A stretch of DNA of 64,000 nucleotides from assembly GCA_964304625.1 (NCBI GenBank), contig OZ199839.1:8278560-8342559 (forward strand). Reading direction: 5' to 3'. This DNA comes from Kudoa neothunni. Lineage: Eukaryota; Animalia; Cnidaria. The notes under the pieces are model-generated. The model made no database searches, had not been told where the DNA came from, and saw only the letters and a program-made list of their open reading frames with translations. This document shows positions 31,001 to 59,636 of the stretch, piece by piece (position 1 is the first letter of the stretch; every line of letters begins with the position of its first letter). Position numbers and translations under genes: made by a program.

Positions 31001-31012
31001 GTGCGCATGCTC
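31001..31012 (+). promoter_or_regulatory. GCGCAYGC (NRF1/Ewg-like) proximal promoter motif upstream of MOCS2B
   Basis: GTGCGCATGCTC ~37 nt before the ATG. The identical 12-mer lies upstream of ValRS, with variants before PMF1, VPS33B, DAD1 and HAUS5. Confidence 0.6.
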
Positions 31013-31048
31013 GAACATTGATACTTATCTTTGCATTCATTCCTACAA

Positions 31049-31573
31049 ATGAGCACAATACATGAAGACCAGCTTGTGAAAATTGTGCTAAGCAATAATC
31101 CCATTCAAACAGACTGGCATTCAAATTTTATGCAAGACAAACATTGTGGCGCGTTGAACATTTTCAATGGGATTGTTAGACAAGATCAAGAGAATCTGCA
31201 AGGTCTGCACTTCGAGTGTTACACACCCATGGTTATCGATCAGTTGATAACAATCTCATACGAAGCGATCAGGAAGAGTGAAGGACAATTGAGAAAAATT
31301 TTCATCTATCACCGAGAAGGTTTTGCTGCGATTGGGGAGATATGTTTAGTGGTGATGTTAGCGGCGGGTCATCGTGAAATAGTTTTCGATGCAATGCCTC
31401 ATGTGTTAACTGAAATCAAATCCAAAGTGCCTATCTGGAAGAAAGCCATAATTAACACCACACCACCTGCAGTTGAACAACAGAACAACAAGGGCGCACA
31501 ATCAGAAACATATTTTTGGATTGCAAACAAAGAATCGAAACCACTTAGCGTCCAAAAAAATTTGGAAGAGTAG
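31049..31573 (+). CDS. MOCS2B: Molybdopterin synthase catalytic subunit (MoaE family), intronless
   Basis: CGALNIFNGIVR, LHFECY, HREG, AGHRE, EIKSKVPIWKK and C-terminal WxxNKE are MoaE/MOCS2B motifs. First ATG at 31049. Confidence 0.92.
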   Translation: MSTIHEDQLVKIVLSNNPIQTDWHSNFMQDKHCGALNIFNGIVRQDQENLQGLHFECYTPMVIDQLITISYEAIRKSEGQLRKIFIYHREGFAAIGEICLVVMLAAGHREIVFDAMPHVLTEIKSKVPIWKKAIINTTPPAVEQQNNKGAQSETYFWIANKESKPLSVQKNLEE

Positions 31574-31623
31574 GAATGGCGCGAGTTTTTGGGTTATGTG
31601 CGCACGCAAATATAATCAGAGTT

Positions 31624-32275
31624 ATGGACGATTCTTTTCGTTCTCAACAACATCAACTTCGACAACAACTAAAAGAAACACTACTCAGTTTATCATCAAG
31701 ATTTAAGTAGACTTAAAGAAAATCATTTTTTATTATTATGGCCATTAATTAGTTCAAAGAATGTTAAAAGTGTGATTTATAACGCGTATTGCGAAAATCC
31801 CGACGAATTCACCGAGATAACTGAACAATGTTATAATGAAGCGTTGGTCAAAATTAAGGTGTGTTGTAATGGTAGGGAGCCATATATTTTTTTATTTATC
31901 TTGCCGATATAGCAAGCCATGGTTAATGCACTGGATGAATCTGGTATGCGAGACCATATGTTGACAGCTCCTGAGCTGGCTGAGGGAAATTGGTAATTTT
32001 TGTTGTTCTGTCATTTTTTATTGTGAATTTTAGGCGCCCTTCAAACGATCCATCAATTTTGGTCGAATCAATTATTAAAAATGAAAAAATTAAAGCATTA
32101 GCCGAGTACAAAGCAATGAATGCTAATGTAGGTGGAATTTTGCTTATTTTTATCGTTCTGAATATCCTCCTAGAATATTGAACTAGCCCAACAACTAACC
32201 AATGATATCCTAGAGATGCAGTCGAAAATTGATGATATTATTGACTCGGTGCAGAAAAATGTGCCTGATTTGTAG
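31624..32275 (+). CDS. PMF1: PMF1/Nnf1 (MIS12 kinetochore complex subunit), 5 exons
   Basis: Spliced reading MDDSFRSQQHQL...EALVKIK|QAMVNALDE...EGNW|RPSNDP...MNAN|NIELAQQL...VPDL*. The WRPSxxP motif followed by a coiled coil is typical of PMF1/Nnf1. GT-AG introns of ~45-60 nt. Confidence 0.7.
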
Positions 32276-32739
32276 AATAATATGCGTTTGTTATTTATAC
32301 ATCTTGTTTTATTACTACGGTGGAATTTATGATGCGAAATCGGCAGTTGTGTTGAATATTGATATTTTACAAATTTTTCTCCAAATAAGATATTAAATAA
32401 TAAAAACTACATCAGTAAATAACCATAATTTTCTCTCAATTTGAGAGATTAAATTTTTAACTTTATTGTTGCAATTTATTGTATATTACAGGGCGTAAAT
32501 CGAAATATTTTAAAATTAGTACGTTTATTTTCGATAATTGATAAATGTGTCTAGGAAATTATAATATTAAGCTGATTGACATATTATTTTTGTTAATACA
32601 CTAATTGTTAAAATTTTAAAATATTCAAATAAGGTGGGTCACAAGACTTTTTTTGTTGAGAAATGGAATGTGAGAATAAAAAGTTTGAGAAACACTGCTG
32701 TATTGAGATTGAGATTGAGACTGAGACACCACAATAAAA

Positions 32740-34598
32740 TATATTCCTCAGTTAGTTGAAGCTATCCCTCGATCAAATAACACAACTAGGGATAGAATGG
32801 TTGATATGTCTCAAAACATTTTGAATCAAGTGATCACGGAACTACAGAACACTTCGTTTACGTGTAGTTTACAACTTGATGAATCCATCGATGTATCTCA
32901 ATACAGCCAACTTATAATTTTTTCCCGCTATGTTCACAAGGATAAACTCAAAGATGAATTTTTGTTGTCAACCATTGATAAAAGGAGTGAAATCATCAGG
33001 TATTTTTGAATTGTTGCATGATTTTTTTTAGAAACATAAATTTGAGTGGACTAAGAAATTATGTAACATATGCACAGATGGGCACCTTCGTTACTTGGGA
33101 AAAAGTCCGGTTTTGATGCACTTGTTAAACAAAAAGTACTAGACCTTTTGGTAACACATTGTTTCCTTCATAGATATGCGCTCGCTTCGAAAACTCTCCC
33201 ATCGACTTTTTAAAATTCTTTGTCAAGAAATGAACAAAGATTATGATGTGCTGCTCTACCATACTGAAGTTCGTTGGTTATCTAAAGGTCAACGCCTCAA
33301 ACGATTATTTATTCTTATAGATGGGGTTGTCATGTTTCTTAGAGAAAGAAATAATGATCTTTATAAATATTTTGATGACAAAATATTCGTTTATGGAATA
33401 GCATACTTATCTGATATGATATCTTTGAGCACATCAAAAACTTAAATTTGTCTCTCCAGAGGAAAACGGTTACTTTAATTGACGCTTCTGGAAAAATGCG
33501 CTCTTTCACAGCCAACTAACACTCTGAGAGAATAGGATTTTATCCGATTCTTTCATGCGAAATTTTCAAAACTTGAAGATTTTCTACAAAATTATGCCAT
33601 TAAATTGTCAACAGTATTAAAATCCTCACTTAAAAATTATTTTCCAATCATCAGCAATCTTCTCCTTGATTCATGGATTCGAAATCCAATTCTATATGAT
33701 ATCAGCACCATGGCCGACAACGATCATTTAAAAGAAGAGCTGATTGATCTGCGACCCATGGAAATCCTGCATCATGAATTTAATCCAAAAAATGTCGAGG
33801 AATTTTGGTGCTCCATTAGAAAACTTTGCCCAAAAATCACAGTATAGGCCTTAAAATAATACCATTCACAACAACATACTTGTGTGAAGCTGGATTTTCC
33901 ACACTGGTTCATATCAAACACAAATTCCACAATAGACTGAATCCAGAACATGATATGCGAGTTTCTACTGCAAAAACAATTCCTCACTTCGAATTACTCG
34001 TCAAAATTAAACAAAATCAAAAGTCTCACTAATTATAAGTTTAATTTTATAATATTAGTAAATCTCTCATCCGTTTTAGTCATAAAGGTGATGATATCGC
34101 GGAGTTCTTTAAAAATGAATACCAATTTTGAATATTCTAAATTTTAAAACATTAATTTATTTTGTTTAATAGCAAATATTACACTTCATGAAAAAATATT
34201 ATTTTTTTCATTAGTTTATTATTTTTTTATTATTGTAATTGGATTTCAACGAAGTTATAAAAAGTCGCTTCATTATTTTATCAAGGCATACTTGTAGGCT
34301 TCTTATTTCTAAAGTCGGTGTTACATTTTTAGTGCTTATCGAAATAAACGGTTTTTCTCTAAGATAATTATCTCAAGGACATTTTTATTAAAACTCGCTT
34401 TTAATGAAAATTATTTTTTAAATAGAGCTAGAACTTGTGAATGTATATGAAAATTTAGCACATAAAACCATATTTTTTAACAAAAATTTACATGAAATGG
34501 AATTCTTAGGGGTTCGTATTCGTTTAGTTTAGCTTAGTTTAGCTTAGCTTAGCTTAGCTAATAGGGGATCCGCGAGTCATAAAGGTTGGGTCCAACTG
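32740..34598 (+). mobile_element. Decayed hAT (Buster/Charlie; ZBED5/8-SCAND3-like) transposon
   Basis: SLQLDESIDVS, ICTDG, THCFLHR, LLYHTEVRWLSKG and PFTTTYLCEAGFS across frameshifts. Right TIR-like end AAGGTTGGGTCCAACTG at 34582-34598. Confidence 0.88.
34524..34560 (+). repeat. (TTAGC/TTAGT)n microsatellite inside the hAT subterminal region
   Basis: ttagtttagcttagtttagcttagcttagcttagct. Confidence 0.8.
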
Positions 34599-35758
34599 TT
34601 CTAATGCCTCTAATCAATTATAAGCTATAGTATAAAAATTATTATTCTATCCTTTATTCAGAGTATTTTATCGGAATGAATCCAAACTTATTTTACATGA
34701 GCATATCAATTAAACATTATTGGTTAGCAGTTTTCAAAGCAAAAATAGGTACAATATCAAAATTGTCAAAAATATAAAAGATTTACAGGCTATCATTCGC
34801 AAATTAAAAAAAAAGCGAAATAATATAATTTTCGTTATGTCTAAACCATTTTAAAAGTTATAATGGATGTAATTCATTAAAAAAAGGATTTTGAAAATTA
34901 GGGTTGGAGCCGAAAAGTTCGTTAAATCGATAAACCTTATTTTTATAAAAAATTGTTTTCTTAGAACTGTTAATTTGATTTGTATAAAATAAACATTTTT
35001 ATTTGAAAAAAATATTTTCAGTCTTGATAATTATATATAAGAGAGGATAAAGTAAAAATACGGAAAACCGATTATCTATTGTATAATCAAATTAAAATTT
35101 ATTAACATAATTCAAAATCTTAATTTCAGTTGAATGATTTATTTGTTATTCAAAAATAAAGCTGGAATATTTTCTTGTGAGCGAACCTTAAAATTTTAAG
35201 ATTAGACTCGAAATTGCTCGTAAAATCGGCTAATCCATATACAACATATTTAAACGAATAAAATTTCAACACAGTTTAAATATACTAATTCTTACTTCAT
35301 AAATTTTACGAAAAAATTTACACTAAAACTTCTGAAAGTCCCAAAAATTAGTTACTCCCAAATAAAATTATTATCGGAATATCTCGCACAACGAATCCGC
35401 ACGAAACATGATAAAACTGAGTTTTAAACATAATAATTCCACAACTAATTAGCTCTAATATCCAAATTTGATTATAAATATATTGAATAAAGAAAAATAA
35501 GTCACTAATTCAGTTTTTTTGTAGTTAAAACAATAATTAAATCAAACATTAGGAGTTATTCATATCATTACTATTATTCCAAAAAGATCATCGGTTTTTA
35601 TAAAGAATGTTGTGACCACATTACGACACACTGTATAGCGTTATACATTCAACAGGAATATATAACGCAACGAGCGCACGCGCAAACCCCTTATTGATAA
35701 TAATCGATATCAATAAAATAAGGTTTCTTCCAAGGCCACATGAAAAAATACAATCCAA

Positions 35759-38700
35759 ATGCCTGATTTAAGTATTCTTTCTAGTCTGGCCAAAAATGAG
35801 GTGTTGAAACACCTTCAATACGTAAATAATGTTTATATGTTGATGTGTATTGATGTGGGTTATTCAAGTTTGATGGCGACAAAGATCTCATTATCGAGCC
35901 ATCATTGATGAAATTTCTCGAAAGGATTGTGGGAGCATCATTTCTACGAGTAAACCAACAACAGCTCCACCTAATAATAATTATAAAACCTGAATATTTC
36001 GTAGAGTCAAGGTGTTAAAAAAATATTCAAGCTAGAGACAGATCTTGGCAGTGACTGCTCGCAGTAGTTTAAATTTAATAGGTGTTAACATGAATTTTTG
36101 TCGTACAAAAAGATTAGTTTATATAATATCTCCAGTAGTTACCGAGGTGAAAATTGTTATAGGTAATCCTTTTTGAATATTATTTTAATTGTGCCCACTA
36201 AAACCACATTTCATACAAGTAATGTAATATTGATTAATCGGAAAAAATTAGATCACATTAAAAACGATAAACAACAGTTGATAAATCGAAACTATGTTAT
36301 ACTTTATTATCCAGCAAGAGTATGTGCTTATGGCTAAAATTCTCTTTTAACCTCATTCCAATATATAATTAGACATATGTGGTTGATTATTTGATGGAGC
36401 AGGAGTGTCTCATTTCGGAGAGTAGATTGCTAAAGTTATAGCTTATAAGTGATATGGATCGTGGTGGTTTAGATATTGTTGTCGAAGATTTGAACCTTCA
36501 TTTTGTACCACTCGAAAACAATGTTCTATCCTACGAACAACCGGTCTACTTCAAAGATTTATATATTGTTAGCATGTGGCGTTGGTGAGTTGTGTTGTTA
36601 TTAGCAATTTATGTAGGAAAACTCCACATGTCCCCTTGAATACATCACAAAATCTTTGATTGTGCTAATGAAACTGTATGGACTGATTCCATTGGTTTAT
36701 TCGTTGGGAGATCGTGCTCACGTAACTATAATATTCCTTGTGACAATTTAATAATATAAATATTCATTGTATGCGACCGTGCAGGAACTCAGTGAAATGT
36801 TAAAATTCAACGTGGTTGCTGGCAGTTTCGACACCAACAACACAAATTTGACAGTTGGCCGACTGATAATCTTTGATAGGAGTACACTATTTTTTTTTGC
36901 TTCGTAAACGGTCAATAGATTAACTATTGATTACGTTAGATATTGACATGGTTACACCTTGTCTATCTCAAGTCACTTACGAAGGAATGCTTAGTGATGC
37001 CTTCACTATCACCAGTGGTAATCTATTCTATTTATTAAACATCACTCACTTGTCTGCTAGAATTTATTCGAAATAAGCATTTGCGAATTTATTTAATTTT
37101 TATTGTAATGAATTGTGGCTTTCGAAAGTTGAGCTTGCGAATCGCTGTCTAGAAGTTTGTTTGTTGGTATTACAATTACATTTAAATATTGTCGATAAAC
37201 GCATTGTTGCAAATCAATGCAATAAGTAATAGAAAGGTTATAGAAACGATTGAGGGCAGTTATTACAAAATACTTAAAGCACGATTCTCTTAAATATTCC
37301 GAAAATAAATGTATGCTTTATAGAAATTGGTTATTGACGTGGATCATAATTCCGAACGAGTGTAGACGTCATTTAGGGTTAAAAATTGATTTAATTTTTT
37401 TTGCGAATATTAAGCACGAATATCTAGTCATTTGACACTCAGAATAATTGTTGTGGATAAGAAGATATACTTTTTTCGGCTGAAATTTTTTTGATCTTAG
37501 AATGTAAGTATAACTAGAAAGAATTTTTGGTCTTCTTTGGAAAATAAATAGTGAATGGAAAGCGTAAGAATCATATTTTCAAGAAAATTGCCGAAGTTTA
37601 TTGCATAATTTCTAAAATTTGAAGATATGTGTAGTGGATAAGCAGTGTTTTTTAAATTACGTAATACGTATTAAATATTCATTTCGGACTCAAAAGGAAA
37701 AAGTGCGACAATCTAGCACAATTCCATTTATCAGAAATGTTCAGAATTTGTTATAATTTCTCTCCTAATTCTACCTAGTTATGATGTAGGTATTAGTTTG
37801 GAGTTATTTTCTTAATTCGCCCTTAAAAAATTAGCGAATAATTTTTATTTATTCCCCACTTGCCGTATGTTACCATATTGCTATGTGACATTGGTTTAAT
37901 GATTTCTCAAGGTGTATTTAATATTTTACCTGAAAATTATATTAAAACTGTAATTGAATTTCTATTAGTTTATAATAAATAAAATAAGAAGGATATCGGA
38001 TTTCTTTGGTGGTAAAAATGAAACGTAAACTGGTTTTTTGAATAATGCGTAAGGAATTTATATCGTTGAATTCATGTAATAATTATTATTTTATTTACTT
38101 GAATATGTGTATATTATAAAATATAACTTCTTCTTTACTTGAATATATGTATATTATAAAATATAACGTCCATTTTTTGCGAATATATGTATATTATTTT
38201 TGAAAAGTAGATTAATTAATGTTGCCTTATAAGAGGGATTCTCAATTAGAAGTGAATTTACCTTCTAGGGATAAATTTTAGATGATAGAGGGTAAATTAA
38301 GTGACATAAAATTGGGTATGGACTATTCTTGCATAATGCGGTTTGTTACGCGCTAAAGGATTCCCAATGAGTTATATTTTTTAAGAAGATCTATTAAACT
38401 CAACTCAATTAAGATGTTAGCAGAAATGCTTAATATGTTTTTGGGAGTAAATAGTTAACTATAATTTATAAAACTATTATCAATCCTTTTCTTGTATGCC
38501 TCGTTTATTTTTCAAAGATATGATCTGATAATACGTAAATAAGTATACCTATTTGAAGTAGATATGAATTTGATCCCAAGTTAAGATAGTTAATTTGGAT
38601 TTTTTTCAGGCTGATGTGGTAAATTTTAAGACAATTAATAACTCTTGTTATATAGAATTATAAATTATGGGGGTTCCTAACTAAACATTTCAATAACTTT

Positions 38701-41376
38701 TATGAAATTTCTTGTATTTACAGATCTAAAATTTTGTTGCTCTTTAAAATATTTTCCAATTTTTTATTTTCAGACACATAAAGGTTTAATGAAGTAATGA
38801 AATGTAATATGTATAAATAATATTAATTTTCGTTAGAATAAATAGAATTTGAAGTTAGCGATATAAATTCGTTTAAAAAACAGATATTATGCAATAACTT
38901 GAATAAAAATTTAAGTCCATATTTAATTAATATTACGAAATTTTGTATATAAATTAAAAAATTGTAAAATCCAATGATAGTCTATATTAAAAGGATTTTA
39001 TTGGAAATAGGCCACCTGTGCTGAATTTTTAGGTCTTATTTTCGTAGTTAATTTTAGTTTGGCTTTGAAATTAACTGTAAATTCATTTCTTCGAATAAAA
39101 CGGAGTTAGGGAATGTCAATCTTTTGTTAATTGGGAGACGCCGAACTAAATATTAGGTCAAATAGAAAAACTTTCTTTTGTGTATTTTATTGATGTAAAA
39201 TAACGATATTTAATCTATTAAAATAAATCGCATTAAACAAATTTATTGGATCTTTTCGTTATGATTTTTTAATATGTTTTAATAATTTTCTTAAAAACGA
39301 AATCAATAATGCTAGAAAAAATAAAAATTGTTTATGAAGTAGATTATAGCGAAATTATGATTATTGGTATAGCTATTTTGTAATTTTATTTCATATTAAG
39401 CTATAATAATTTGTGTAAAAGTGTTATACGCTTATTAAATATCGTGTTCTAGGGTTTTTGACTATAGAAGATCAAGAATTGTTATCAAAATTGCCATCAA
39501 ATAACTCCAAAATTCTATTGAGCGATAAAAACCTCATTTATAATCAAATTAGAGATATGTATCTATCCAATGTGTTTATGTATTTGAAAGAAGAACTGAA
39601 TGTGCTTCATCAACTGCAAGAGGTATTTTAGTATGCTTGGGTGGATTTTTTACACATTAAAAATTAGAAAAGCGAAAAAATATCAAGTGTTTCAGATATG
39701 AAGCAATTTGTATCAAACGATCTTAGAGTTTTACAGGCTAAACGCGCTTGCATTTTAACACGTAATCTATGTGTGAATAAATTGGCAAAACTTCGCCATT
39801 TTATTCAATTTTATCGGTATGTAATGATTTGTTTAAGATATGCTGTGTGGCGAAAAGTTAATGTTCGAAAAAAATAGAGAAAACTTTTCGGATCGCCTTT
39901 TCCACGAATATGGTAACAACTTGAATCCATTAGTTGTGTAATTTTTTGTGATGTTTTTAGAGATTCTCAAAGGTAGATCCACAAAAATCGTTCATGAATA
40001 TATAGAAAATCAAATTATTATGGGGGTAATTTGAATTTGTTTTTGTTTCGAAGTAGCCCCTTTTTAGGAACCCCCCGAAAAATGCCTTTGTCTAATTGTG
40101 TTATGGTGTCGTTGTTCGAGTATTAAAATTTTAACACAATTTGCTATTATCACGGAAATACAATATTCAGTTGAATGCAGCTTTTGCAGTATCTTACCAA
40201 TTAACCTGTCCCATTATGGATTATTATCATAAAATATAAACAATGTCGAATCCATTAAAATTCTTCTTTTATTCCATTGAATTATCGAAGCTTTTGAGAT
40301 AAATGATGGTAGAAGAATTTATACATAATTTTAGTGGTTTAATTTCTCGGTGAAAATAGTTTTTTGTTTCAGGTTAAAATGTTTCTCGATATAAAATATT
40401 TCATATTAGATCCGTCATCTAAAAACTTAACCACAATTAAAAATCTTTTCTACCAAGTAATGAGTTTAAAAATTATCTACTTCTTTGTTAAACCCTGATT
40501 TTTTCATTAGAGTTATGGATATGGATATTTGACTACTTTTGAGGCTTTTGAAAAGTTTGGAATTATACAGGTGATTTGTTGTTGTTATTTGTTTTATTTT
40601 ATTTCGCCATGTTTTTAGGCTGGGAATTCTGCCAATTTCGACAAGTTAGCCAGGGAATTAAAACTTGTAATTTTTTAATTTTCATTTGTGTTCTGAGATC
40701 CCAATAATTTATTATTTTCTGAAAAATCCAATTTAAGTTTAGTATTTGATATTTTGGAAGTTATTTTATTAATTGTATGATTATATATTTTTATTTGAAT
40801 TTTTCGTGTATAATAAAAATTGATTTGTTGTTTTGCCAAATTTTAGTGATATTAAAACACATATCGCCAAATTAGACCGGCCTGAGTAATTTTTTTACAT
40901 CTAGATACCCGATGAGCATACCAAGTGTCATTATCCATTGGATATGGGGAGTATTTACAATAGCAAATATCGGCCGATGTCTTGTCGAATCATAGAATCT
41001 GTAATTTATTTTACCTTATAATTTTTAACCAACCAAATACCATGAATATGGCTCTTTAACAATAATCAAATAGATTCTCAATCCAACGATGATGGAAACA
41101 TTCAAGGCTACTTCATTAGGCGAGTGTTTGAAGCAATTCCAATTTATTCCGTTCAACAATGGTATCTTAACTCTTAGAATAATAAATATCTTTTAATTCA
41201 ATGTGATAGCTGGGAAGGAAGCACAAGACACTGTCATGATATTGATGCTGGGTGGAATTAATCATTCCGAAATTAGTTGCATTAAGACCATAGCAATAAA
41301 TTTGGGAATCAAGATAATCATCGCAACCACTGCTATCACAAATGGGATTCAATTGATGAGTTTGTTTCAACATTAA
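35759..41376 (+). CDS. VPS33B: Vacuolar protein sorting 33 (Sec1/Munc18 family), VPS33B-like; many short introns plus one ~2.4-kb intron
   Basis: MPDLSILSSLAKNEVLKHLQY|FDGDKDLIIEPSLMKFLERI, IIFDR.IDMVTPCLSQVTYEGML, LILMLVGINHSEISC-type segment and C-terminal IIIATTAITNG...FQH* (TAA 41374-41376). The N-terminus resembles VPS33B more than VPS33A. Confidence 0.85.
38094..38197 (+). repeat. ~40-bp minisatellite, ~2.5 copies, in the large VPS33B intron
   Basis: TTTACTTGAATATRTGTATATTATAAAATATAAC repeated with period 40. Confidence 0.8.
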
Positions 41377-42870: not shown

Positions 42871-43313
42871 CTATCCCATATAATTGATAGCAGCTAATTG
42901 TGCAACGAGTTGAGCCACAATCACATTCTTTAGAACCTTGTCGTTATTGGATGGGTCGCCACTGTTCAATTGAATTCTCAGAACCACTACACCAACCATC
43001 AACTACTCAAAACTCCAACCAATTCAATACCTCCCATAACAAAAGTGGAAACACAAGAAACTAGAGAGGCAACAAATGGTTTGATTGGACTTCGAGAGAA
43101 AAACACACCATACACACCATTAATTATTCCTATGATCATGACAAATGCCAGAAACAGATCAATGACTTTAACACGTAAACCTGTTTTCTGTTTATACACA
43201 CTAAAAGTGGCATTGAAAACTGTGCTAAAATCCTTTAGAGTGAGTCTGTTTCCTTCTTCGTTTGGAGCGGTTGTGGTGGGAGAAACAACTTTTGTTTGCT
43301 TTCCTTTTGCCAT
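42871..43313 (-). CDS. DAD1: DAD1/OST2 subunit of oligosaccharyltransferase, 2 exons
   Basis: KTGLRVKVIDLFLAF..., SCVSTFVMG|VVLRIQLN and C-terminal AINYMG* match the DAD1 pattern (LKxxDxYL, SxVGxFVL, LRxQ, NFxG). Confidence 0.85.
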
Positions 43314-43774
43314 GTCATGCAAACCTGCGTGCGCGTTACCACATACGATTCAAAAGTTTCTATTAAAATGATAAATATTCAATATTTAAAAATTTTGATT
43401 CTTTCATGATCCTTAGTTTTTTCAACTCATTGGGATCTAAGAGTCTGCTGTTAAAATAAAATCAAGACCTTAAAAAGATTAAAATATTTAATCAAAGCGT
43501 TAATTTATACTTTATCAATTCAATAATTTGGTAATTTTTTGTACTTTAAATTACGTTAATATTCATCGGTTTTTTCCTAGCATCTAGATGAATTAAAATA
43601 AATTAGAGAAATCATTTATTGTTCTCAATCAGCTTCATTACAGTATAATTTTTGATTATTGTGATTTTAGGGTGGATTGTCTAGTTGCTACTATGTTGCG
43701 AATCCTTCAACTTTGGATTAGTCACTTATATGTGCGTGACAATATGATTTTTTTTTAAAATTCATCATTATTAA

Positions 43775-43777
<3 letters not shown>

Positions 43778-43816: not shown

Positions 43817-45397
43817 AAATTTAAAATTGTTTATAAAAATACTAATTTTAATTAGTTTAATATTTATAACTAAAAATCTGTTCTACTTATGAATGTATTT
43901 TTAGCAAACGCATAATTTTTCAAATATTTATAAAAATCGATGTTATTGTAGACATAATTGTTAATTTCTGCATCTATTTTTAATATAGAAACTCATGGTT
44001 ATTCACATGTATTCCAATTGGCTGCCAAGGATTAAAACTGACCATAAATAGACAATATTTGTTAAGTTAAAATTAAAAAATCTATGAAAATGCCAAAAAA
44101 ATTGATTTTAAATTTTAAATGAAAAATCTAGTCAGTCGCATTATATATTTAGGTAGTGACTATATCTCAGGGAATGAATATCTCTATAACTACCTCATAT
44201 ATCTTATTCATATTTTACGCATTATCTAATATTTATTTAACTTGATTTTTTTGTAAGTTAGAAAAATTTGACGAAGAATAAATCTTCACTAGTGCATCCA
44301 TCCTAAGTTCATCAATATTCAAGTGTAATTATCATATATTTTTAAAAATTTGAATAAATAATATTAAAATTTTCATTATCTTTTTTTTCTTGTAATATTT
44401 TATATTTCTAAAAGAAATGGAGTATATGATGACTTGACCGTGGGGGTTAGAAATCATAAAATATAACAGTTATCACACTCGAAAAATAAATTTAAAAAGA
44501 CAAACTTCGTTAAAAAAGCGTTTTAAGTCACCTATCGCAGTTATTTTTTTTGTTGAGGTTGAAAAAATGGCCACATTGAGATAAATTTTGTTTCTGCTAT
44601 AGTTTTCGACGTTCTTGCACCATAACTTTTTGATAAGAAAAGTTATAAAGAATCTTATTATAATTTTTTTAATTTAAAAGTTAAAACACGCGCGCATGCG
44701 TATTTATGGACCAACCTAAATAAATACAAATACACGTCGATTTAGTCGCCGAATTTTTTAAAAATAAACGTCGAAAACGGCACTGTCTATTTATATATAA
44801 TGTTTCGACCCCCTCGAAATTGTGCTACACATCAATTTTTTAAGTACGCCTTAATTATAAAGAAGCTAAAATAAATTTGAAGCAAATAATTTATATCTTT
44901 AAATGTAATGTTATTTTAAATTATATATCACGATAGTCTTTACGTGATTTAAACAACATAACACATCTTAGTAAGTGTTTAAGGCGCGATTGTGCCTTTG
45001 AATTATCATTTGATACTTGTTAGTTTTAAATTAGGATCGTATTTGATTCATAAGGTATCAAACATATGCTAGTCAACTAAAAATATGGAATATATTTATT
45101 TATTCATTCAAGATTGTTTTTATTAATATTTTAGTGGATAAAAAATTTAAAATTAAATTAAAAATAATGTTAATTGAATATTTAAAAAGCATTTAGTGTT
45201 ATTAGAAAACCGCGAATAAGTCGTTGTATGCAAAATGTTTGCTTACGGTAACTTTAAAATGTATTTTAATGTCAAAAAAATAACTTTCTGAATCCACACA
45301 ATCGTGGAAAAACCGGAATGTAGGATAAGTGATGGTTGTTTGATAAAAATGTTGTATTCTAATGCAAACAATACTAAAGAAACGAAAAATTTAGAAT

Positions 45398-48300
45398 CTA
45401 AAGAGTTATCGACTGAAATTTGGTTATGGTAGCTTCGATTTCTTTAAGTTGTGTCGTGAGGTCGTCGAATTTTTGTTCTGAGGACGTTCGCACATCAACG
45501 GAAACAGCTTGGTCAAAGTTCTGAATGGTCTTTTCGGTTTTAGTTAGTAAAGCTTGAAGTTTTTTTTGCTGATTTTTCAATTTCTCAAGCTCTTTTTGAG
45601 GATCTACCAAGCCCTACCACAAAATAAGATTTGTTTGGATGGTGTAAAAGTATAAAATCCTTACATCGATAACAATGTAAATCTTGCATCGAGTACCAAC
45701 GACATTTTCAGCACACAAAGTCCCATTTACAGGAGATTGGTTATCATTAGTGCTGAATAACTTCAAACTAAAACAGAATTACAGTCAAATGCTGCGTGAG
45801 ACAAAAACAACAAATTATATATCACCTTTTGAGGTTTGATAATGAAATAATGTCTCCTGAAAAATCGTTAAGTATTGAGTTGGTGGAGTTGTTATTAGTG
45901 TTATTGTCACAGGAAATGAAACCTTAATGAAAAAAATAAAAACTGATGCTAAAGTAATATTCCTGAAAGATCAGTGATACAGTCAGTTTTGGTTTTGGCA
46001 GGAGCGTAGGTGTCTTTTGTGGACCTGATGGCACGAATAACCGAAAGCACAAAATTGACGTTCTCTTCAAGTTGAATGTTTCGCATATTAAGCTAAGTAA
46101 AATTAAAAAAAAGGTTGTAGAAATATTAGAAAACCTTTGAAGGAAATGAGGCTATCGTAACACTAACAGGATGATCATCAGAATATGCAATAGGAAGTCG
46201 TTGATAGAGTTCCTCCGAGATAAAAGGCATCAGTGGAGACAGCAACTTTAATCCATTGTGGACACAGTAGAGAAGCACATACTTGGCTGATGCAGATGAC
46301 GTCACTGTTGTTTTTGCACATTCAATAAACACATCGCAGAATTCATACAGCCAAAAGTTGTATGCGGCAGTCGTTGCTTTCTGTAGTTGATATTCCGCGA
46401 AAGCTTCATCAGCGGTTTGAATAGCCACATCGAGACGACTAAGTATCCATTTTTCAATAAGGTTTGAGGTTGCTTTCATCTTTTCGATTAACATATCACT
46501 TGTTATATGTTCACCATCGGGGTTGAACTGCATGAGCACAAATTTCACAGCATTCCAGACCTTGTTACAAAAAAATCGGTATCCTTGCACACGTAGGATG
46601 TCCAAATTTATATCTCTACCCTGCGAGGTGTAAGCGCACAATGAAAATCGAAGAGCGTCAGCACCACATTCTGGAATTCCACTTGGAAAGTCGATCTTTT
46701 GGCATTTGATTGCATTTTCCATTTCTTGAGGAACCAAATTGTAGGATTTCAATTTCTCATTCAACTCTTCCAAAGTGATTCCTTCAATAACATCTATAGG
46801 ATCTATAATATTTCCAAGCGATTTGCTCATTTTTCTGCCATGGGCGTCGCGGATAAGTGAATGCAGAAGAATTTCAGAAAATGGCAATTGATTGGTAAGC
46901 TTACGTCCCAACATAACCATTCTAGCAACCCAAAAGAATAGAATATCGTGGCCAGTTTCAAGAAGAGTGGTTGGGTAGAAATGCCCTAAGTCGGCAGTTT
47001 TCTCTGGCCAACCAAACACACTGAAAGGAAACAGACCACTGGAAAACCATGTATCGAGGACATCCTCATCCTGACTCAAATGTACAGATATATTGGAAGG
47101 AATGTTGAATTTCTGTATGGTTTTTTGACGTGCTTGCTCTTCGTTTTCGGCACTCACCCAGCTGTCGTTATCACTCAACGTGGATAAATGCTCAGGAAGT
47201 GGATCGTTCGAACTTAATGAGAATTTGTACGCAGGTATACGATGTCCCCACCAAAGCTGCCTCGAAATGCACCAATCTCGATGATTTTCCATCCACTGGA
47301 ACCAGGTTTTTTCAAAAGAATTTGGTATTATTTTAAGCTGTTTACTCTTGACCACATCAACTGCATCTTTTGCCATTTGTTTACAGTCGATGTACCACTG
47401 AGGTTTAAGTAGGGGTTCAATGATATCTTTGGAACGACTGCACATGGGCAAAACCATAGAATGGGATTTCACACAATCAAATAGATCCATAGTTTTTAGA
47501 GTGTCTGCTATCATTGTTCTAGCGTTAAATCTTTGAACATCGCAAAACAATGACTTAAATCCAGGTTTCATATCAGCGATTTCAGTAATGCAACCATTTT
47601 CCGTAAGAATGTTGATGAATGGTAGACCGTGCTTGACTCCCAATTCATAATCATTGAAATCATGAGCTGGGGTGACTTTCATGACACCAGTTCCAAATTC
47701 AATGTCAATAGAATCATCAGTTATTATTGGGAGCTTACGATCACAGAATGGATGGCTCACAAATTTGCCGTGTAGGTGAGTGTAACGCTGGTCATTCGGA
47801 TTTACAACAATAGCTACGTCTCCCAACATAGTTTCCAAACGAGTAGTGGCTACTAGAATCTTTTCGTCAGATCCATCCAGTCGGTAGTAGAAATAGGTCA
47901 TGGTGCCAAATTCAATTCGTTTATCATAACCAGGAATGGATAAATAAGTTTTTCCAGTGAGCTCCTTCTTATCAACTTCAATGTCCGAAATAACTGAATT
48001 GAGAGAACAGGACCAATTGACCAATCGGTTGGAACGGTAGATCAACTTTTCGTCATGCAAACGAATAAACGCTTCAACAACAGCTTTGTTTAATTTCTAA
48101 AACCAATCAAAATAAATTTTACAACCTAAAGATGTATTACTTCGTCCATTGTAAAACAAGCACGACTCCAATCGCACGAAATTCCTAGTCTCTTCATTTG
48201 GTTATAGATTGCACATCCCTTTCTATAAAAGTAGCATATTCGTTAAAATATTCTAAGATAAAATAGCAGTTAGTTTCCTTTTAAATGTTAGTTTAGACCA

Positions 48301-51616: not shown

Positions 51617-51691
51617 TCTCCTTATATAGATGCTATTTAACTGCAATCTAGTAAAATTATTTCTCAATGCGACGATAGGGACCCAGCACTT

Positions 51692-51703
51692 GAGCATGCG
51701 CAC
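51692..51703 (-). promoter_or_regulatory. GCGCATGC (NRF1-like) motif upstream of ValRS, overlapping an in-frame ATG
   Basis: Minus strand GTGCGCATGCTC, identical to 31001-31012. Confidence 0.6.
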
Positions 51704-51859
51704 AAAAAAGATACACATGTAAACTTTACGTGTTAGAATGCTTCAAAAATTATCAATAACTACAATTACGTATTGGTATAGTATATCAAAAGTTCTATCA
51801 TAAATGTAGTATTTTTAATGTTCTTTTGTGATTATTGAATGTACTTCGTTTTCAATACC

Positions 51860-54692
51860 TATAAACCTCTAACAAACTTGAGGTATTTCGGACCCCTAAG
51901 TGGTTTTAAATTGATTAGAATATTTTACATACTCTTTCTTAACACTTGAAATTCATGTTGATACCGGTAAATTACGATATTCACAGTTTATTAAAATTTG
52001 AAAAAAATCAATTTAACTTCGCATTGAAATATAAATTTATATTCCAACGAACTTGGGGTCTTTCGGTCCCCAGATTTTTATTTGGCAGTAACTATTTCAC
52101 AGAAAATTAATATCTCTAAGACTAACCAATCGAATTTGTTGAAAATTTATATATTACCATAATCCATAAAGAGCAATTCATTTATAAATTTTTAAGCACA
52201 TACAGATATGTTATACAGATGTCTCTAAAATAACGCAGGAGACTGAATGTGAACAGGGTTTTTAACTTTAGAAACAGATTAACAATCAAAATATTCGTTC
52301 ACAAATGTAGTAAGCAATTTTATAAATCTGTGACGACAATTTTTGACGATCATTTGCGTGTTACTCATTAATTTGTGCGCCAGAGTGATGAATCAGAATT
52401 TTTTTAACGTTGGCATGAAGTTTAATTATTTTGATGAATTAGAAAGTGCGATGAACACACGCCATATTTTAGCATATATTAATTCCAGGAAAAATCCTCT
52501 TAAATATTAAAAACCCAATATATACATCAACCAATCCATTATTCGTTATTACGAAATTCCATATCGATATATTTTCAGTGGTACTAATAGGCACACAAAG
52601 AATTGATAATGAAATAATGGAATATTCAAAAATAATTGTTCTGTTATACTTTCATTGAGAGCTTCCGAGGACGGTTTGTCTATTGAATTGCGTAGTTCTA
52701 TTTTGGTTTTAACCACCGTCATGTCACCATAAATATATATTGTATATATTTATCGACGAATTTTTAATCAATGATATTTATTGAAGCTATGTCAAAATAC
52801 AAAATTAAGATAAATTTTTTCCTTTAGTTTTTAAAGAAATTAATTGTCTGTGGAGTAGCCACCGCCTTTTTATAATAGATGAGTGATTTGCTTATGGATT
52901 CTATTAATGATAACAAGTCTTTCTTATGGAAGAGCTTCTGCAGTATAACAGCCATGCATTAGTAATGACTGTATTGAGACCCCATATGAAAATTTTCATG
53001 TAAAGTTTTTAAGATTTATTCTAATCTATTCAATGTCATCAGCGTATCTGATAGATCGACATTTCCCATGTTTTTGTTGTATTCAGAAGCAATATTAGGA
53101 CACTCAACATTAATCATTCGTTTGAGGTGTTTATTAAATCTCTTTACATTGAGACTGGGTTCCAAAAAAGAATGTGTTGAGGACAATGTAGCAATTGGAC
53201 CATCATATTGTTGAGATAACACAATACTTTGATGAAGATCTTGCGCTCTTTCTTCCTCAAATATCTTTGCGGGAGTTAAGGGACAATTTTTTATTCTATT
53301 TCTTCAAATTGTACCAATTGAGTAAATATTTTGGATTTTTAAAAATGAATAAAGTGGGATGGAGGTAAAGTAGTTGTCAAAATAAAGGAGATACGTCTTT
53401 GATGTTGGAAGAGTTTCGGAGGGTTTAACAACAAAGTCTCCTGCGACTAGACCACAACTTGGCGTAACCGGGGATCTTTTGCCATCATATACGTAAAAGT
53501 CATACACGATGTCATTAACACCGCATCTAACGAAAATTTTGAAGCCCCAGTTTCAAGGTTTCTTCGGGAGGCATTGCCTTGCTTTACATTTTCCTTTAAA
53601 AGGAATCACTTGCACGACAATTGAATTGCTTACTTCTGGGGTTATCTTTAAGCATACCATCCGGAGGTGCTCAAGAAAAGGTCTGATTTTCGCAAAACGA
53701 TCAAAAGTGGGTGATTTTTGGTCTGTTAAAAGAGTTTCGTTATTATTAAAATGTAAAAAATTGAGGATTTGTTGGAAACGAATTCTGGAGAAAGTATTCG
53801 AAACAGGGAGATAATTCAAGGATTTACTCCAATAACAGCGGTATCTAGGGATTCTAACAATACCCACCAAAATAAGAACGTCGATGAAATTTTGAATTTC
53901 TTCGACATGTGTACGGAAAGTCGATCCAAATTGAATGGAATAAATATTTGGTTGCGATATTATTAATTCCAATAGTTCATTACCAAAGAAGAAATTAAAA
54001 TAGTCTATTGGCTCATGAAAACCGTCAAGTTCTTCAGAATTTTCGTTCGTAGTTACATTTTCAGGTCGTTTAATCCAGGGCCTTTCTTTAGTCCATTTAA
54101 CACCTATTTACACTTCCAAAACAACCGACTCATCCGACGAGTTAGTAGAGGATTCCTCAGAATTTTGGGGTTTTATTGGATCAAATTTAACATCAATATA
54201 CATACCAGGATCTGAAATTTCAACATCTGGAAGAACTATAACTACTGCTTGTATTTTTCTATTATTTGACCTTGTTCTAAAATCGTGATCCATTATAATC
54301 CGACGTTTTAGTTCCATTGCAAGCATTTGTTCACCGTAATGAACACATGGTTTTAAGCTGTGTACATTTTTTTACTTATTGTATCAATGTGAATATTTGG
54401 AAAAATAAACTAACAATAAGTATCCATAATATATTTTTTTTTGATTTTTAAAATGAAACATACTTTTATAAACAGAATTAAATTGGAATTTTTTAATCGG
54501 GATATAGTAAAAAGTATCGTTCAATAAAATTTTGTTATTTCTTAAATATGATACAATTAAAAATATTAGCAATCTCAATACTAAAATCTTCAGTTTAATT
54601 TACTTTTGGTTTTCTATATAGGTATATTCAGTACATGGTGACCAAAATAATGGTTTGTTCACTACAATAAAGAATGGGATCGAGAGGGTTAA
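51860..54692 (-). mobile_element. Decayed piggyBac transposon (PGBD3-like)
   Basis: Fragments FSRIRFQQILNFLHF, DRFAKIRP, VIPFKG..RQCLPKKP, LYFDNYFTS, GTI and YNKNMGNVDLSD. GGG-TTAA terminus at 54686-54692; GGGGTCTTTCGGTCCCC subterminal repeat at ~52055. Left end approximate. Confidence 0.85.
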
Positions 54693-54980
54693 CAAAAATT
54701 TTTAACATAATCTATTATTCTAAAATCCCAGCGTATTACCTAAATAATTTTATTTCTTATATCGGTAATTTTCTTTTAAATTATGTGGAAGAATATTTAA
54801 GGAAAATTTATTTAACTTTAATTATTTACTAATAACACAAAGAAAATAAGAAAAATAATTTCCTGGGATATTCCATTGTGGGTAGACAATTATAAAAATA
54901 TAAGTTGAATTTGAAATATTCCTATTGTATCGATTCATAATGTATTCTTGTCACACCATTTGAAACCTCTCGATTATTAT

Positions 54981-55472
54981 TTTTTGTTTACAAGGTCAAA
55001 CCCTTGGCGCAACTTGTTAGGCTGTGAAGTTCGGGTTGGTTATGCCTTCTCCATTTACACTTTAGGCACCGAAGCGTCATATTAAGGCGACTTACTTTTA
55101 TGCGGTGGTGTGGGATTTTAACCCAAACATTCTTGTTTCGAAGCAACTACCACGTCAGCTATACTAAGGAATAACCCAGAATTAATCTGGAAAAGTCGTC
55201 TGAATGTGGTCGTCGACTCTACGGAAACCTCCCATTGGGTCTTATTTCGTTCCTGTATCCCGGTGTTTACGAGTGCCGAGTTCTGCCCTTCTGATGGACT
55301 CCCTCCCAGAGATAAACAAGACCACGATAAGTGGTAGATCCTCGCGATTAGATTATTACAGCCTTCCACATTTTTTTAGGATTAGGAGTACAGGAACGTC
55401 CGGATTAGGCTTTGAACTCTCAACCTCGTGGTATGCGATCTCGATCTAACACCACTGTGTCATATTGTCCCT
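54981..55472 (-). mobile_element. tRNA-derived SINE, divergent subfamily copy with 11-bp TSD
   Basis: Head TGACACAGTGG (A box) and GAGTTCAAAGCC (B box) on the minus strand. 3' half shared with the other copies (CCT.GGCGCAACTTGTTAGG, TTTAGGCACCG, TATGCGGT..TGTGGGA..TTAACCCA). TSD TCGATTATTAT at 54970-54980 and 55473-55483. Confidence 0.85.
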
Positions 55473-56313
55473 TCGATTATTATGTTCCATTCTTAGATTA
55501 TGGTCTGTAATTTTCAACTACCGCTAGTTACATCCCCAGAAAACATTAAAATGGCCAAGATATAGTTATTAATCAATTCAAATTTTATGACACACACTCT
55601 ACAATCATTTAACATTAATGTTATTAATGATGGTAATTGAAATAAATGTATAAATTGAATGCTGTGATTCAATTTAACTTAGTATTGACACAGAAAATAA
55701 ATGCATAATAATATTAAGCTGTAAGCCTGGATACATTATAAAATAAACCATAATTATTCTTCTTGACGTCATTACACTTTTGTCTCATTAGTTGTGTAAT
55801 AAATTAAGATATATTATAAAAAGTTATAGACAGATATCATTATTCTTTGGATTAAAGTTTTATCATAATTATTTAATGATTGAAACTTCCCCCTATACAT
55901 GGACTAGCCGGTAAACAACATAGGCACTACCTATTCGTGTGTCTAGTAAATATAAGATTTTTATTTATCATTTAATACCTAAATATTTTTACAAGCTAAT
56001 GAATTGATTACATGGAAATTTTTATTGGACAAATTAAATAACCCAATTTATATAACAAGGATTATTTGACTGGAGTTTTACACAGTTATTACAGGCAATC
56101 ATAAGAGCCGCATTTATATTTTATTTAAAAATTACATTATCATGCGACATCTGATTTTACACGTGCATGTCTGTATAGTTATACGCCAATAAGTCTGTGT
56201 TATAAGCTATATAAACGACATAATATGCAAAAATGAAATTAGTTTATTATTTAATAAAGTTAATGGTTTTTTAAAAAGTTAAAAATTTTAATTCGTTGGA
56301 CTGTCTCCTATGC

Positions 56314-57900
56314 TCAAACTTGAGCAGCGGTTGTGTCCCCTTCACCTTGATCAGTTGGCGTCTCAATTTGTTGTTCTTTTGTTTTTGTGACACCATCATC
56401 ATTATCGTCATCATCATCATCGTCATCCTCATCGTCACCATCTTTATCTTCCTTATCATCACCATCATTATTTTGTAGGTCAGTTGGTGTGTCGGGAGAG
56501 GTTGATATAGGTTCGGGACTACTTGTAGAAGTGGTAGTAGTCTCAGTTGTAGTTGCTGGAGTAGTTGTTGGTTCGGGTAAAGTAACTTCAGTTACACCTA
56601 CAATGCAAATGTAATTGCAAAGAGCTTCACTTTCAAAGTTGTTCGCATTTCCACCAATTCCAGTATATGCAAATCGTTTACACACTTTTTCATTATCATC
56701 ATAATACCACCTTGGTAGTGTGCTTACTTCATTTCCATTGCCAGGTTGTTTTGGTTCGCTGCACACAGTTGGGATATCTGGCAAAGTTTCAAGTGTCTCA
56801 TCATCGTTAACTAGAAACATTAAATTATATAATTCTAAGTAATAAAGGGAGTATACGAGCAGGGCAGGCACTAATACATTCTCCAGCAGTATCGAAATAA
56901 TTTTTGGTTGAGTCTACTTCTATATCAACAGCCATCATTTGGACACACAATTTGTTTGTGGAATTGTAGTAATATTTGATTGTTATATGCCCTTCGTTTG
57001 TTGGTTGATAGGCATCAGAATTGCATCTTTTAGTTGCTTTTTCATCAGCTAAATTCACGTAATTACCTTATTTAATTAATTTTTTTATAATACCATGACA
57101 CTTCTTTTGGCATTGAGAAAATGACCTAAAGACACCTCTTAAGTTTGAGTTTTTATCTACGATCGCATGGACACAAATGGACTTTTCACTGTCTCGTACG
57201 ATCTTGATTTCTCTTTCAGCATTAGTGGCAGTGGAACTTAGAATAGCTCCCACTTCGCAGTCAACTTTGTTAGGTATTTCGTGGGGTGCCACATTTGCTG
57301 ATTTTAATTATGGCATGGTAAAACGAAGAACAAACTACTTATGCACATATCTTTGCAATCACTTTCACTTGGAAACGAGTATTTAGGCTCATTACATCCC
57401 ATATATTTATATGTTTGACAAGTTCCTGCAGCATTGTCGGCTCCCTTTTTGAAGTAATATCTGTCTACTTCTGGTTTAGTGCAAACATTGAAGGATTCTC
57501 TGCCATCGCCACTAAGGGCTGTAGATGGCGTGTTTTCCTCTACACAAACACCGACTCGACTCGCGTAATCATATTCAACTAAATCACGTTAAAAAAATTA
57601 ATAGTATATTTTTGAGTACATTCTTTGTTGCATTCTTCCAGTGATTCAAAATTATTGAAGCTTTCGCCACCAGCTCCCTTGTACAAAAAGCTTTTGCAAG
57701 TGGCTGTAGCTTTATCAACGTAATATCTGGTAGGATAAGATTTTATAACAATCCTATGGTTTTTTTCAAGATTAAAATCATATATTGTATCCGCTAAAGT
57801 TAATTTGAGTTATTGATTTTATATTTTAATTACGAGCGAGATAAGAAAGAGGTATGCAGGTTAAGACAATGTAGATCAAGGTTTGTATGTATATCTTCAT
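56314..57900 (-). CDS. Secreted protein with five divergent Kunitz/BPTI-like domains, Thr/Pro-rich stalk and Asp-rich tail
   Basis: Signal peptide MKIYIQTLIYIVLTCIPLSYLA (ATG 57900). Exons carry RYYVD..CKSFLYKG..NNFES, RYYF..CQTYKYMGC..F, two more divergent repeats, and RWYYD..CKRFAYTGIGGNANNFESEALC. Poly-Thr and poly-Asp C-terminus. Confidence 0.82.
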
Positions 57901-58904
57901 GTTTTTAGTTATCTAAACTCTCTACCCTACAAGGAGGATTAAAATAATATTATATTATTCGTGAATGAGTTAAATGATTATTCTGATAATTGTCGTGAAG
58001 ATTATTATATTCACAATAAATCGATTAAACCTATCGTTAGAATACATCAATAACAAAATAGATTAGAGTTGGTCGTTAATGGTTCATGTAATAACTAATA
58101 AGCATCTAAACGTACCATCGTACATATTTATTTTAATTTTTTAACGTTAAATACGTTTATGTTTTCTTAATTTAATTGTTATAAGAATTTTGAAAATTAA
58201 ATATTACTATTTGGAAACATTATAGGGATTATTTAAACATTTTTTTATTAAAATCGAATCCCGTTTATCTGAAAATTGCGCAATCCACACGATTCTTTAA
58301 AATTTATTAGAAAATGACGTAGATTCTAAATAAAAAAATCATTTAAACGAAATAACTTGTTCTTGGGATTTTCGGATAAAAGTGCCTAATTAAAATGGGA
58401 CTACAATTATTTTTTCGGTACATATGTTTAATTTATTCAATATAAGTTTATGACTGATTAATAGAAACAACCTAACGTAGATAATACAATACTCTAAGTT
58501 CAAATTGTAACCAAGTTGATAACGAACAGATAAATGTCGGGTAAAAACCAATTCCCTTATATCCTTTCATTAGTACTATAATAATTATTGACATTCATAT
58601 ATTCGTTTCATCACAAACCATCAACGACTTTACATGACTAATATATTTACAGGGTTGGTCTAATTAGGCGATTATCGCCTTTTTTTCTTTATAACGTTCC
58701 CGCTTTTAAATTCTTATAGAATCTGAATTTTCTATAATAAATAATAAATTATAAGCATAAATCTATATTTAAAATTAAAAAAGATGAAACACTAAAGATT
58801 CTTATGAAAAACTACTCCTCATTGGTACATTAATTATTTTTACCTCCCGCGTTCGAACAACTCATAATATCCAAATAGAGAAGAAATTATTAACGCGGTA
58901 ATTG

Positions 58905-59365
58905 TTTTTTTATTTACAAGGTAAAACCCCTGGCGCAACTTGTTAGGTTGTGGAATTTCGGTTGGTCAGACCTCTTCCATTAACGCTTTAGGCACCGCAG
59001 GACGTAACATGAAGTTCCGCCCCTTATCCTTATGCGGTAATGTGGGAATTTAACCCACTAAACATCCTCGTCGCAGGACGACCACCTCCCCAAACCCTAT
59101 CCCTTTAAAGATGTTGGCTCTGTGAGGCCTGCAAATTACTTGTCTTACGATGTGAATAGGAGATTCCAACTCCTATTCACGCTCACGCTCACCCCACTTC
59201 ACGCAATTCTGGCTGCCAATGCATCCCACTCCACAGCGAGCGTACACTTTAACCACAGCTCCCAAATCCGAATATGAGATATGGGATAGACACCTACCGA
59301 TGGATTCGAACCCATTACCTCAAGGTTCTGAGTCCGAGTGTCACACCGATGTGCTATCTTTCGCG
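58905..59365 (-). mobile_element. tRNA-derived SINE, copy 3
   Basis: Minus strand GATAGCACATCGG...GGGTTCGAATCC head; near-identical body to 42151-42600; T-rich (A-tail) left end. Confidence 0.88.
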
Positions 59366-59636
59366 CGCGTAAATATTAAACTTGGTTTTACCGAAATTGC
59401 ATATCCCGTATCCAGTCCCAGTATCGTAAAGGAAAATGCTAGCTTCAAAAATTTCAGAATAATCGGATAAGACTGTATAAAATCTTAAATTTTATTAATT
59501 TAATTCACGAAAATTAATTTAGAATGATATATAGCACAATCTTGCTAGATTAATTAAAATTCTAATGTGTGAAGTGTAACGATAATCGCGCGCAGGCGTT
59601 ATCGCGCTACTCTCCAAAAAAAGCACCACCAAACAA

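Follow-up and report, generated by a model that had tools for sequence, protein, structure and literature searches.

A short GC-rich word, GCGCANGC, lies close upstream of the ATG of all six general-purpose genes in a 64,000-base stretch of contig OZ199839.1 (the whole of which is called the window below), and its enrichment there is real. We read its sites as probable NRF1-type (P3A2/Erect-wing) proximal promoter elements, with binding predicted from their letters. Our analysis covered this one window, in which nine gene starts could be examined (a third GAS2-like gene begins outside it), and distances were measured relative to ATGs, not transcription starts. The marked genes are MOCS2B, a PMF1-like gene, a Sec1-family gene, DAD1, valyl-tRNA synthetase (ValRS) and a HAUS5-like gene; the three starts without a site are those of two CH-domain genes, presumably GAS2-like, and of a Kunitz-domain gene.

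Six marked gene starts

The sites and the genes that they precede are given below with their strands; nt stands for nucleotides, and mismatches are counted against GCGCANGCGC, the consensus discussed in the following section.

31003..31012, plus strand: NRF1-type site GCGCATGCTC, its first base 46 nt upstream of the MOCS2B ATG, one mismatch (position 9)
31049..31573, plus strand: MOCS2B (MoaE family), single exon, 174 amino acids (Pfam MoaE, E=6.7e-22)
31579..31584, minus strand: TCGCGC, which we take to be an E2F-like word, by the PMF1-like site; it overlaps the context of an alternative in-frame ATG at 31576
31600..31609, plus strand: NRF1-type site GCGCACGCAA, between the MOCS2B stop and the ATG of its own gene, which are 50 nt apart, mismatches at positions 9 and 10
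31624..32275, plus strand: PMF1-like gene, five exons, 154-155 amino acids, introns of 41-54 nt, open spliced frame
35674..35683, plus strand: NRF1-type site GCGCACGCGC, full match
35759..41376, plus strand: Sec1-family gene with many short introns, end approximate (Pfam Sec1 on three of the 12 candidate exons scanned, best E=3.9e-08)
42871..43313, minus strand: DAD1, end approximate (Pfam DAD, E=2.3e-12)
43325..43334, minus strand: NRF1-type site GCGCACGCAG from the motif scan, its 8-mer ending 13 nt before the DAD1 ATG
51692..51701, minus strand: NRF1-type site GCGCATGCTC at ValRS from the motif scan, containing the in-frame ATG 51697
59586..59607, plus strand: NRF1-type site GCGCAGGCGT (59590-59599) from the motif scan, between two TCGCGC words (59586, 59602)
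59637..62024, plus strand: HAUS5-like multi-exon gene; a simple search gave a 352-amino-acid spliced frame interrupted by seven short introns, and the exons beyond it and the end (~62024) were placed by eye

Both the 31624 gene and the 59637 gene are genuine multi-exon frames. Their names, PMF1/Nnf1 and HAUS5, are assumed from resemblance and are unconfirmed; the VPS33 subtype of the Sec1-family gene at 35759 is likewise assumed. Neither Pfam, run exon by exon, nor two atlas searches nor a homologue search gave a usable hit for the PMF1 and HAUS5 names; such homologue blanks say little, because the MOCS2B query itself scored with 0 of 14 candidates. For DAD1, the ATG at 43313 is the likely start because the next in-frame methionine falls within the Pfam domain.

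The window has a GC content of about 31%, and its CpG observed/expected ratio is 1.03, so CpG is not depleted. Seven copies of GCGCAYGC occur in the 64,000 bases, against a mean of 0.33 and a maximum of 2 in 100 dinucleotide shuffles. Five of the seven stand upstream of gene starts (31003 plus, 31600 plus, 35674 plus, 43334 minus and 51701 minus), and the other two, at 30741 and 44692, are not at gene starts. At the HAUS5-like gene the site (59590) is GCGCAGGC, which departs from GCGCAYGC at one base, and when position 6 is left free the resulting word, GCGCANGC, has eight sites in the window, six of them within 100 nt upstream of an ATG and all six on the sense strand. The gaps between the end of the 8-mer and the ATG are 38 nt for MOCS2B, 16 for the PMF1-like gene, 77 for the putative VPS33, 13 for DAD1, 77 for the short form of ValRS and 39 for the HAUS5-like gene.

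A previous sequence-only reading of this DNA had claimed that the motif marks every housekeeping gene, some 12-80 nt before the ATG, and that none is evident at the GAS2 or Kunitz starts. The measured range of 13-77 nt agrees with the first distance, and neither orientation of GCGCANGC occurs from -300 to +50 of the two CH-domain ATGs or the Kunitz ATG. The "every" holds for six of six such genes in the window, and the claim rests on these six genes only. It also suggested the motif as a gene-start predictor: within this window, six of eight sites are at starts and six of nine starts are marked. The real promoters of the three site-less genes may sit farther upstream, beyond leader introns. 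The first 30,000 positions of the window (1-30000) hold no GCGCANGC, and among 2300 other ATGs only 10 are preceded by the word.

As a control for picking the pattern afterwards, we counted all words over the nine starts without bias. The top word was GCGCA.GC, present at 6/9 starts, with a score that none of 300 random sets, each made of nine 100-nt stretches, equalled; GCGCA alone was at six of nine starts, which none of 1000 random sets matched. Contiguous 6-mers were weaker, the best reaching 3/9 starts, as did 10 of 1000 random sets. It is extremely improbable that the pattern reflects chance together with after-the-fact choice, or the leftovers of repeats. The small number of starts (nine) and the position of two orphan sites inside repeats speak for that explanation; against it stand the look-elsewhere control (0/300), the separate enrichment of an independent published consensus, flanks of the six sites that do not align with one another, and the single-copy contig depth of the bins that hold the DAD1, ValRS and HAUS5-like sites. 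We also considered a loose mix of CG-rich words (E2F and others) or short alternating purine-pyrimidine tracts with no common reader. TCGCGC does adjoin two of the six sites, and CG-rich runs are also found away from starts, for example at 61650 and 59363, but seven positions are invariant in all six sites and GCGC alone is much less enriched than GCGCANGC, which makes such a mix very improbable. The run at 61650, GCGCGCGT, falls where a 40-nt intron is predicted for the HAUS5-like gene (61634-61671).

Agreement with the NRF1 consensus

The published human NRF1 consensus, made up of two GCGC half-sites around a 2-bp spacer, is GCGCNTGCGC (PMC10810270). On the opposite strand it reads GCGCANGCGC, and the word found de novo is the first eight letters of that string with the N at the same position. 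An NRF1-type site is the best reading because the word supplies 8 of the 10 consensus letters, shares the wildcard, and NRF1 is kept in another myxozoan; the NRF1/Ewg-like label given by the sequence-only reading is supported by the same fit and by the NRF1 gene of other myxozoans. Over the six sites, the mismatches to the consensus number 0, 1, 1, 1, 2 and 2. Scanning the window with the consensus at no more than one mismatch gave six loci, four of them at starts (40 shuffles: mean 0.6, largest 3), and at no more than two mismatches 30 loci, six of them at starts (shuffles: mean 10.7, largest 18), where starts make up 1.4% of the window. The MOCS2B and ValRS sites are the single-change variant measured with human NRF1, for which the dissociation constant was 1.38 uM, compared with 0.31 uM for the full site and 3.76 uM when one half-site was destroyed (PMC10810270).

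Evidence from other animals bears on whether such a factor would be at hand. In Table S6 of the Myxobolus honghuensis report, EVM0007581.2 is NRF1 by KEGG, Pfam and Swiss-Prot, and its best nr hit is P3A2 of Thelohanellus kitauei (PMC8855578). No NRF1 term was found in the Tetracapsuloides supplement, a single small file that is uninformative on this point. In the siphonophore Physalia utriculus, promoter-proximal open chromatin is reported to have E2F, YY1 and NRF1 motifs in common (bioRxiv 10.64898/2026.08.01.742136). An NRF1 site at -50 or -20 lifts initiation about fourfold in human cells, and one at +25 represses it, according to PMC11269187; a preprint on mouse cells describes start sites as set by chromatin-opening factors, and there NRF1 depletion, with a compromised tag, had limited effect. 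Demethylation is reported to raise NRF1 binding (preprint), and gene-body CpG observed/expected ratios are 0.96-1.04 in four of the five myxozoans listed in PMC8857923. The value for the window (1.03) agrees with these, and we count it in favour of an NRF1-type site.

On this reading, the parasite's own NRF1, whose presence we infer, would bind the word before the six general-purpose genes, keep the promoter open and place transcription starts a short distance downstream. The NRF1 dimer would presumably anchor on the intact gene-distal half-site and tolerate a decayed gene-proximal half. Starts would probably fall about 10-60 nt downstream of the site, which would leave the DAD1 and PMF1-like mRNAs with leaders under ~15 nt. 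Other factors would act beside NRF1, with an E2F-like factor a candidate at the two putative mitotic genes.

No description of a myxozoan promoter element was found in the titles and abstract openings of literature on myxozoan promoters and motifs, on cnidarian NRF1 housekeeping promoters and on cap analysis of gene expression (CAGE) with invertebrate NRF1; no paper on nuclear respiratory factor in Myxozoa was found, and the word "promoter" is absent from the full texts of the myxozoan genome papers examined. The case is most likely that of a known element, an NRF1-family site, in a lineage where no promoter element was found described. Myxozoans are fish parasites with fast-evolving genomes that are difficult to annotate. 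A word that marks the starts of conserved genes would aid the placement of start codons, the sorting of parasite from host contigs, and the choice of native promoters for reporters.

A possible start codon within the ValRS site

Two further features of ValRS bear on its site.

51617..51697, minus strand: 27-codon in-frame extension of ValRS with five arginine or lysine residues and no aspartate or glutamate, predicted to act as a mitochondrial presequence; 51616 is the first base of the short form
46129..48096, minus strand: largest ValRS exon, used as the query for the tree (Pfam tRNA-synt_1, E=2.3e-90)

Inside the site, the ATG at 51697 shares its reading frame with that at 51616. In-frame ATGs upstream of the short form are seen at both 51697 and 51718 (51617-51718, minus strand). 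A comparable basic, acid-free extension precedes 21 of the 2308 ATGs in the window. The two-methionine layout recurs in 12 of 90 scorable ValRS homologues, mostly cnidarian and sponge, including those of Hydra, Clytia, Nematostella, Stylophora and two sponges. In yeast, the genes VAS1 and HTS1 each use two start codons to make cytosolic and mitochondrial aminoacyl-tRNA synthetases from one gene. The ValRS gene here is alike in that an upstream in-frame ATG adds a basic, acid-free extension, and unlike in that this ATG sits within the promoter word and the targeting is a prediction. One valyl-tRNA synthetase gene is listed for M. honghuensis in its annotation. From its sequence layout, a single ValRS gene in our window probably yields both the cytosolic and the mitochondrial form: the site would start a short cytosolic mRNA from within the stretch that encodes the presequence, and a longer mRNA begun upstream would give the mitochondrial form.

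The large ValRS exon was also used for placement. Of 7989 scored proteins, the best 120, headed by cnidarians, reached no more than 60% identity to it. A quick tree was built from the query and 44 of these 120 (45 rows in all, no myxozoan among them), and it gave the exon a long branch of 1.77 within a 12-row set with Hydra and Clytia (Shimodaira-Hasegawa-like approximate likelihood ratio test, 100); a 17-row set that adds anthozoans had a value of 99. Scanning for related DNA with this exon as query retained 80 loci with identities of 56% or less, and no further DNA of this organism was found.

Orientation, decay and spacing of the sites

Several observations weigh against a plain NRF1 interpretation. 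All six sites have one orientation and none is reversed at the nine starts, which has a two-sided chance of about 0.03. The NRF1 site is near-palindromic and bound by a dimer, for which no orientation preference is expected; the bias is thus without explanation if these are NRF1 sites, and at that chance level it is a lead. The full consensus is present at one of the six sites, and two sites have two mismatches. All mismatches are at positions 9-10, on the gene-proximal side, with the gene-distal half intact at 6/6 sites, and the G that five of six sites have at position -2 is no part of the published NRF1 consensus. The sites of DAD1 and the PMF1-like gene, at 13 and 16 nt to the ATG, are closer than the -20 to -50 tested in human cells. 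The PMF1-like gene has a further in-frame ATG at 31576, 24 nt before its site and 2 nt past the MOCS2B stop, and its site could be coding if that ATG is used. The ValRS site is less independent as evidence because its ATG may be kept for translation. The constitutive promoters of Nematostella are described as rich in YY1, in a preprint whose main text is without "Nrf". Finally, the placement of the window among myxozoans leans on the long ValRS branch in a quick tree without myxozoans.

Two other explanations draw on the same observations. The word could be a directional core-promoter element (about GYGCGCANGC) that fixes the start, in the manner of insect motif 1 or the CCC word of microsporidia, and is read by another factor, possibly lineage-specific or transposon-derived, with its likeness to the NRF1 site due to convergence or descent. 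The single orientation, the free variation at positions 9-10 and the G at -2 would suit such an element, and Mutator-like (MULE) transposons have reportedly been domesticated into transcription factors in myxozoans. We consider it unlikely, as the wildcard coincides with that of NRF1, the distances to the ATG scatter over 13-77 nt and relatives retain NRF1. Alternatively, the word could act in the RNA, as a 5'-leader element for translation, stability or trans-splicing, with transcription starting upstream of it. Its constant sense-strand position and the 13-16 nt to the ATG at two genes fit this idea, which is nonetheless quite improbable given that two sites contain an ATG, opening a four-codon frame at MOCS2B, and that the word closely fits a DNA-binding consensus. 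A trans-splice acceptor in particular was rejected: an AG lies between site and ATG at five genes and none does at MOCS2B, so the word is not a shared splice-acceptor signal.

Returning to the NRF1-type site, the DAD1 gene has either a leader under ~13 nt or a word that is itself transcribed. Because the word is so prevalent, always faces one way and sits so near the ATG, it could be more than an ordinary NRF1 site, although this is beyond what six genes can show. A bolder version, which we put forward tentatively and regard as rather doubtful, is that in this myxozoan lineage the NRF1 site has turned into a directional core-promoter element of near-universal use, which stands ahead of most conserved genes, sets the start within a few tens of bases and leaves very short leaders of the microsporidian kind, and that the same ten bases at ValRS serve as cytosolic promoter and mitochondrial start codon. 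If the element is near-universal and directional, it would represent an animal promoter contracting onto one ancient factor.

Other factors and other lineages

The sequence-only reading had further proposed a single-factor minimal promoter code. This is unsupported, since other promoter factors exist in a relative and E2F-like words stand at two of the six sites. The M. honghuensis gene table also has E2F4/5, YY1, NF-YA, an Ets factor and KLFs (PMC8855578), and its annotation gave no matches to "BANP" or "DNMT1". TCGCGC, whose E2F-like label is our assumption, occurs nine times in the window, and three of these adjoin the sites of the two putative mitotic genes (PMF1-like and HAUS5-like); it is present in 1.6% of 120-nt windows and beside 2/6 sites. 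Common TATA, CCAAT and YY1 words were present at 3, 1 and 1 of the nine starts, respectively, and are therefore not general.

The sites resemble those of NRF1, P3A2 and Erect wing in their letters, wildcard and place upstream of general-purpose genes, and their variants are of kinds that human NRF1 binds. They differ from textbook NRF1 sites in several ways: six of six general-purpose genes have one, the surrounding DNA is AT-rich and has no CpG island, the orientation is constant, the proximal half is decayed, and the ATG can be as near as 13 nt. The E2F/YY1/NRF1 signature of Physalia utriculus, a member of the group nearest in the ValRS tree, has the same motif family at promoters common to all tissues; there NRF1 is one among several enriched open-chromatin motifs, and no start-codon positions appear in the available part of that report.

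Microsporidia offer a second comparison. In Encephalitozoon cuniculi, CCC/GGG-like and AAATTT signals just before most start codons, with leaders of <7 nt, are reported to help correct start predictions (PMC2803860). The likeness is a reduced parasite genome with a short word ahead of its start codons; the microsporidian signal differs in being another word, fixed directly before the ATG, in a fungal-related lineage. No CCC/GGG word was found in the six bases before any of the nine ATGs. Myxobolid introns have medians of 22-27 nt (PMC13644364), and those of the PMF1-like gene, at 41-54 nt, are longer. Taken with the long ValRS branch and the undepleted CpG, they point tentatively to a myxozoan outside the Myxobolidae.

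Copies away from gene starts

Five further loci were considered, four of them orphan copies near positions named by the sequence-only reading and one additional site.

30741..30750, plus strand: orphan GCGCATGCAG, unexplained; it shares its strand with MOCS2B, whose ATG follows 308 nt later
44692..44701, plus strand: orphan GCGCATGCGT in a multi-copy repeat (summed contig depth 22.7 in its bin and 17-90 over 44056-45311, versus ~4-7 in gene bins)
62080..62089, plus strand: weak orphan GCGCATGTGT from the consensus scan, single-copy by depth, ~56 nt past the HAUS5-like stop and just before a repeat
63122..63133, plus strand: orphan named by the sequence-only reading, no GCGCANGC match, in a multi-copy repeat (depth 150 versus 4.7)
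15673..15682, plus strand: additional site GCGCGTGCTC from the consensus scan, differing from the consensus at one position when read on the minus strand; the ATG of the first CH-domain gene follows 739 nt later

The sequence-only reading had counted ~62079 and ~63121 as motif copies, and the loci there (62080 and 63122) are not GCGCANGC matches. Its idea that orphans flag unannotated transcripts mostly fails: 44692 and 63122 are in repeats, and none opens a long spliced frame. As protein genes the orphans were rejected, with best spliced frames of 78, 19, 47, 30, 6, 40 and 6 amino acids, where 7 of 60 random ATGs reach at least 57. They were likewise rejected as RNA genes; Rfam had no match at the orphans (one weak match elsewhere, E=0.2), and ARAGORN reported 0 genes.

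GCCAT, presumably a YY1-like word, is found 1-18 nt downstream of both the 30741 site (30741-30755) and the 15673 site (15673-15708), and its minus-strand ATG context opens short frames only. After the 62080 orphan (62084-62235, plus strand) are two intron-like GT..AG stretches of ~40 nt and a 32-amino-acid arginine-rich frame at 62140, at a repeat edge; these are unexplained.

Surrounding genes and repeats

The window consists of short-intron genes among transposon remnants. Pfam identified MoaE, DAD, a class I tRNA synthetase, four Kunitz domains, two CH domains, and pieces of piggyBac-type and mariner-type transposases. From three raw RNA runs, 27, 31 and 11 partial reads matched, all <90% alike. 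MOCS2A and MOCS2B are bicistronic in many animals; here no MOCS2A frame is evident upstream of MOCS2B (31049-31573, plus strand). With only 50 nt from the MOCS2B stop to the next ATG (31571-31624), the 3' end of MOCS2B either overruns the next promoter or belongs to a shared transcript.

A family resembling short interspersed nuclear elements (SINEs) has copies at 42150-42605 (plus strand), 58900-59362 (minus) and 54975-55450 (minus), with a tRNA-like head by eye; all three share the 3' tail, but the third differs in its body. ARAGORN finds no tRNA in this family, and the tail pattern matched 0 stretches in Joint Genome Institute (JGI) metagenome contigs. A tail depth of 1400, compared with 4.7, suggests some hundreds of copies. 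Elements bounded by long inverted repeats lie at 5014-6564, 22608-24179 and 28473-29394, the last with mariner-type helix-turn-helix remnants. Further remnants are piggyBac-type (29330-30200 and 52990-54370) and hAT-like (32725-34030).

Three tandem genes, for which the GAS2 label is our assumption, have long low-complexity middles (1-3500, 16412-18680 and 19321-22100, plus strand), with the CH domain confirmed for two of them. The Kunitz gene (56271-57900, minus strand) encodes a secreted protein that has four Kunitz domains and ends in an acidic tail, and it belongs to an expanded family, because diverged paralogous contigs give a depth of 33-36 versus ~5.

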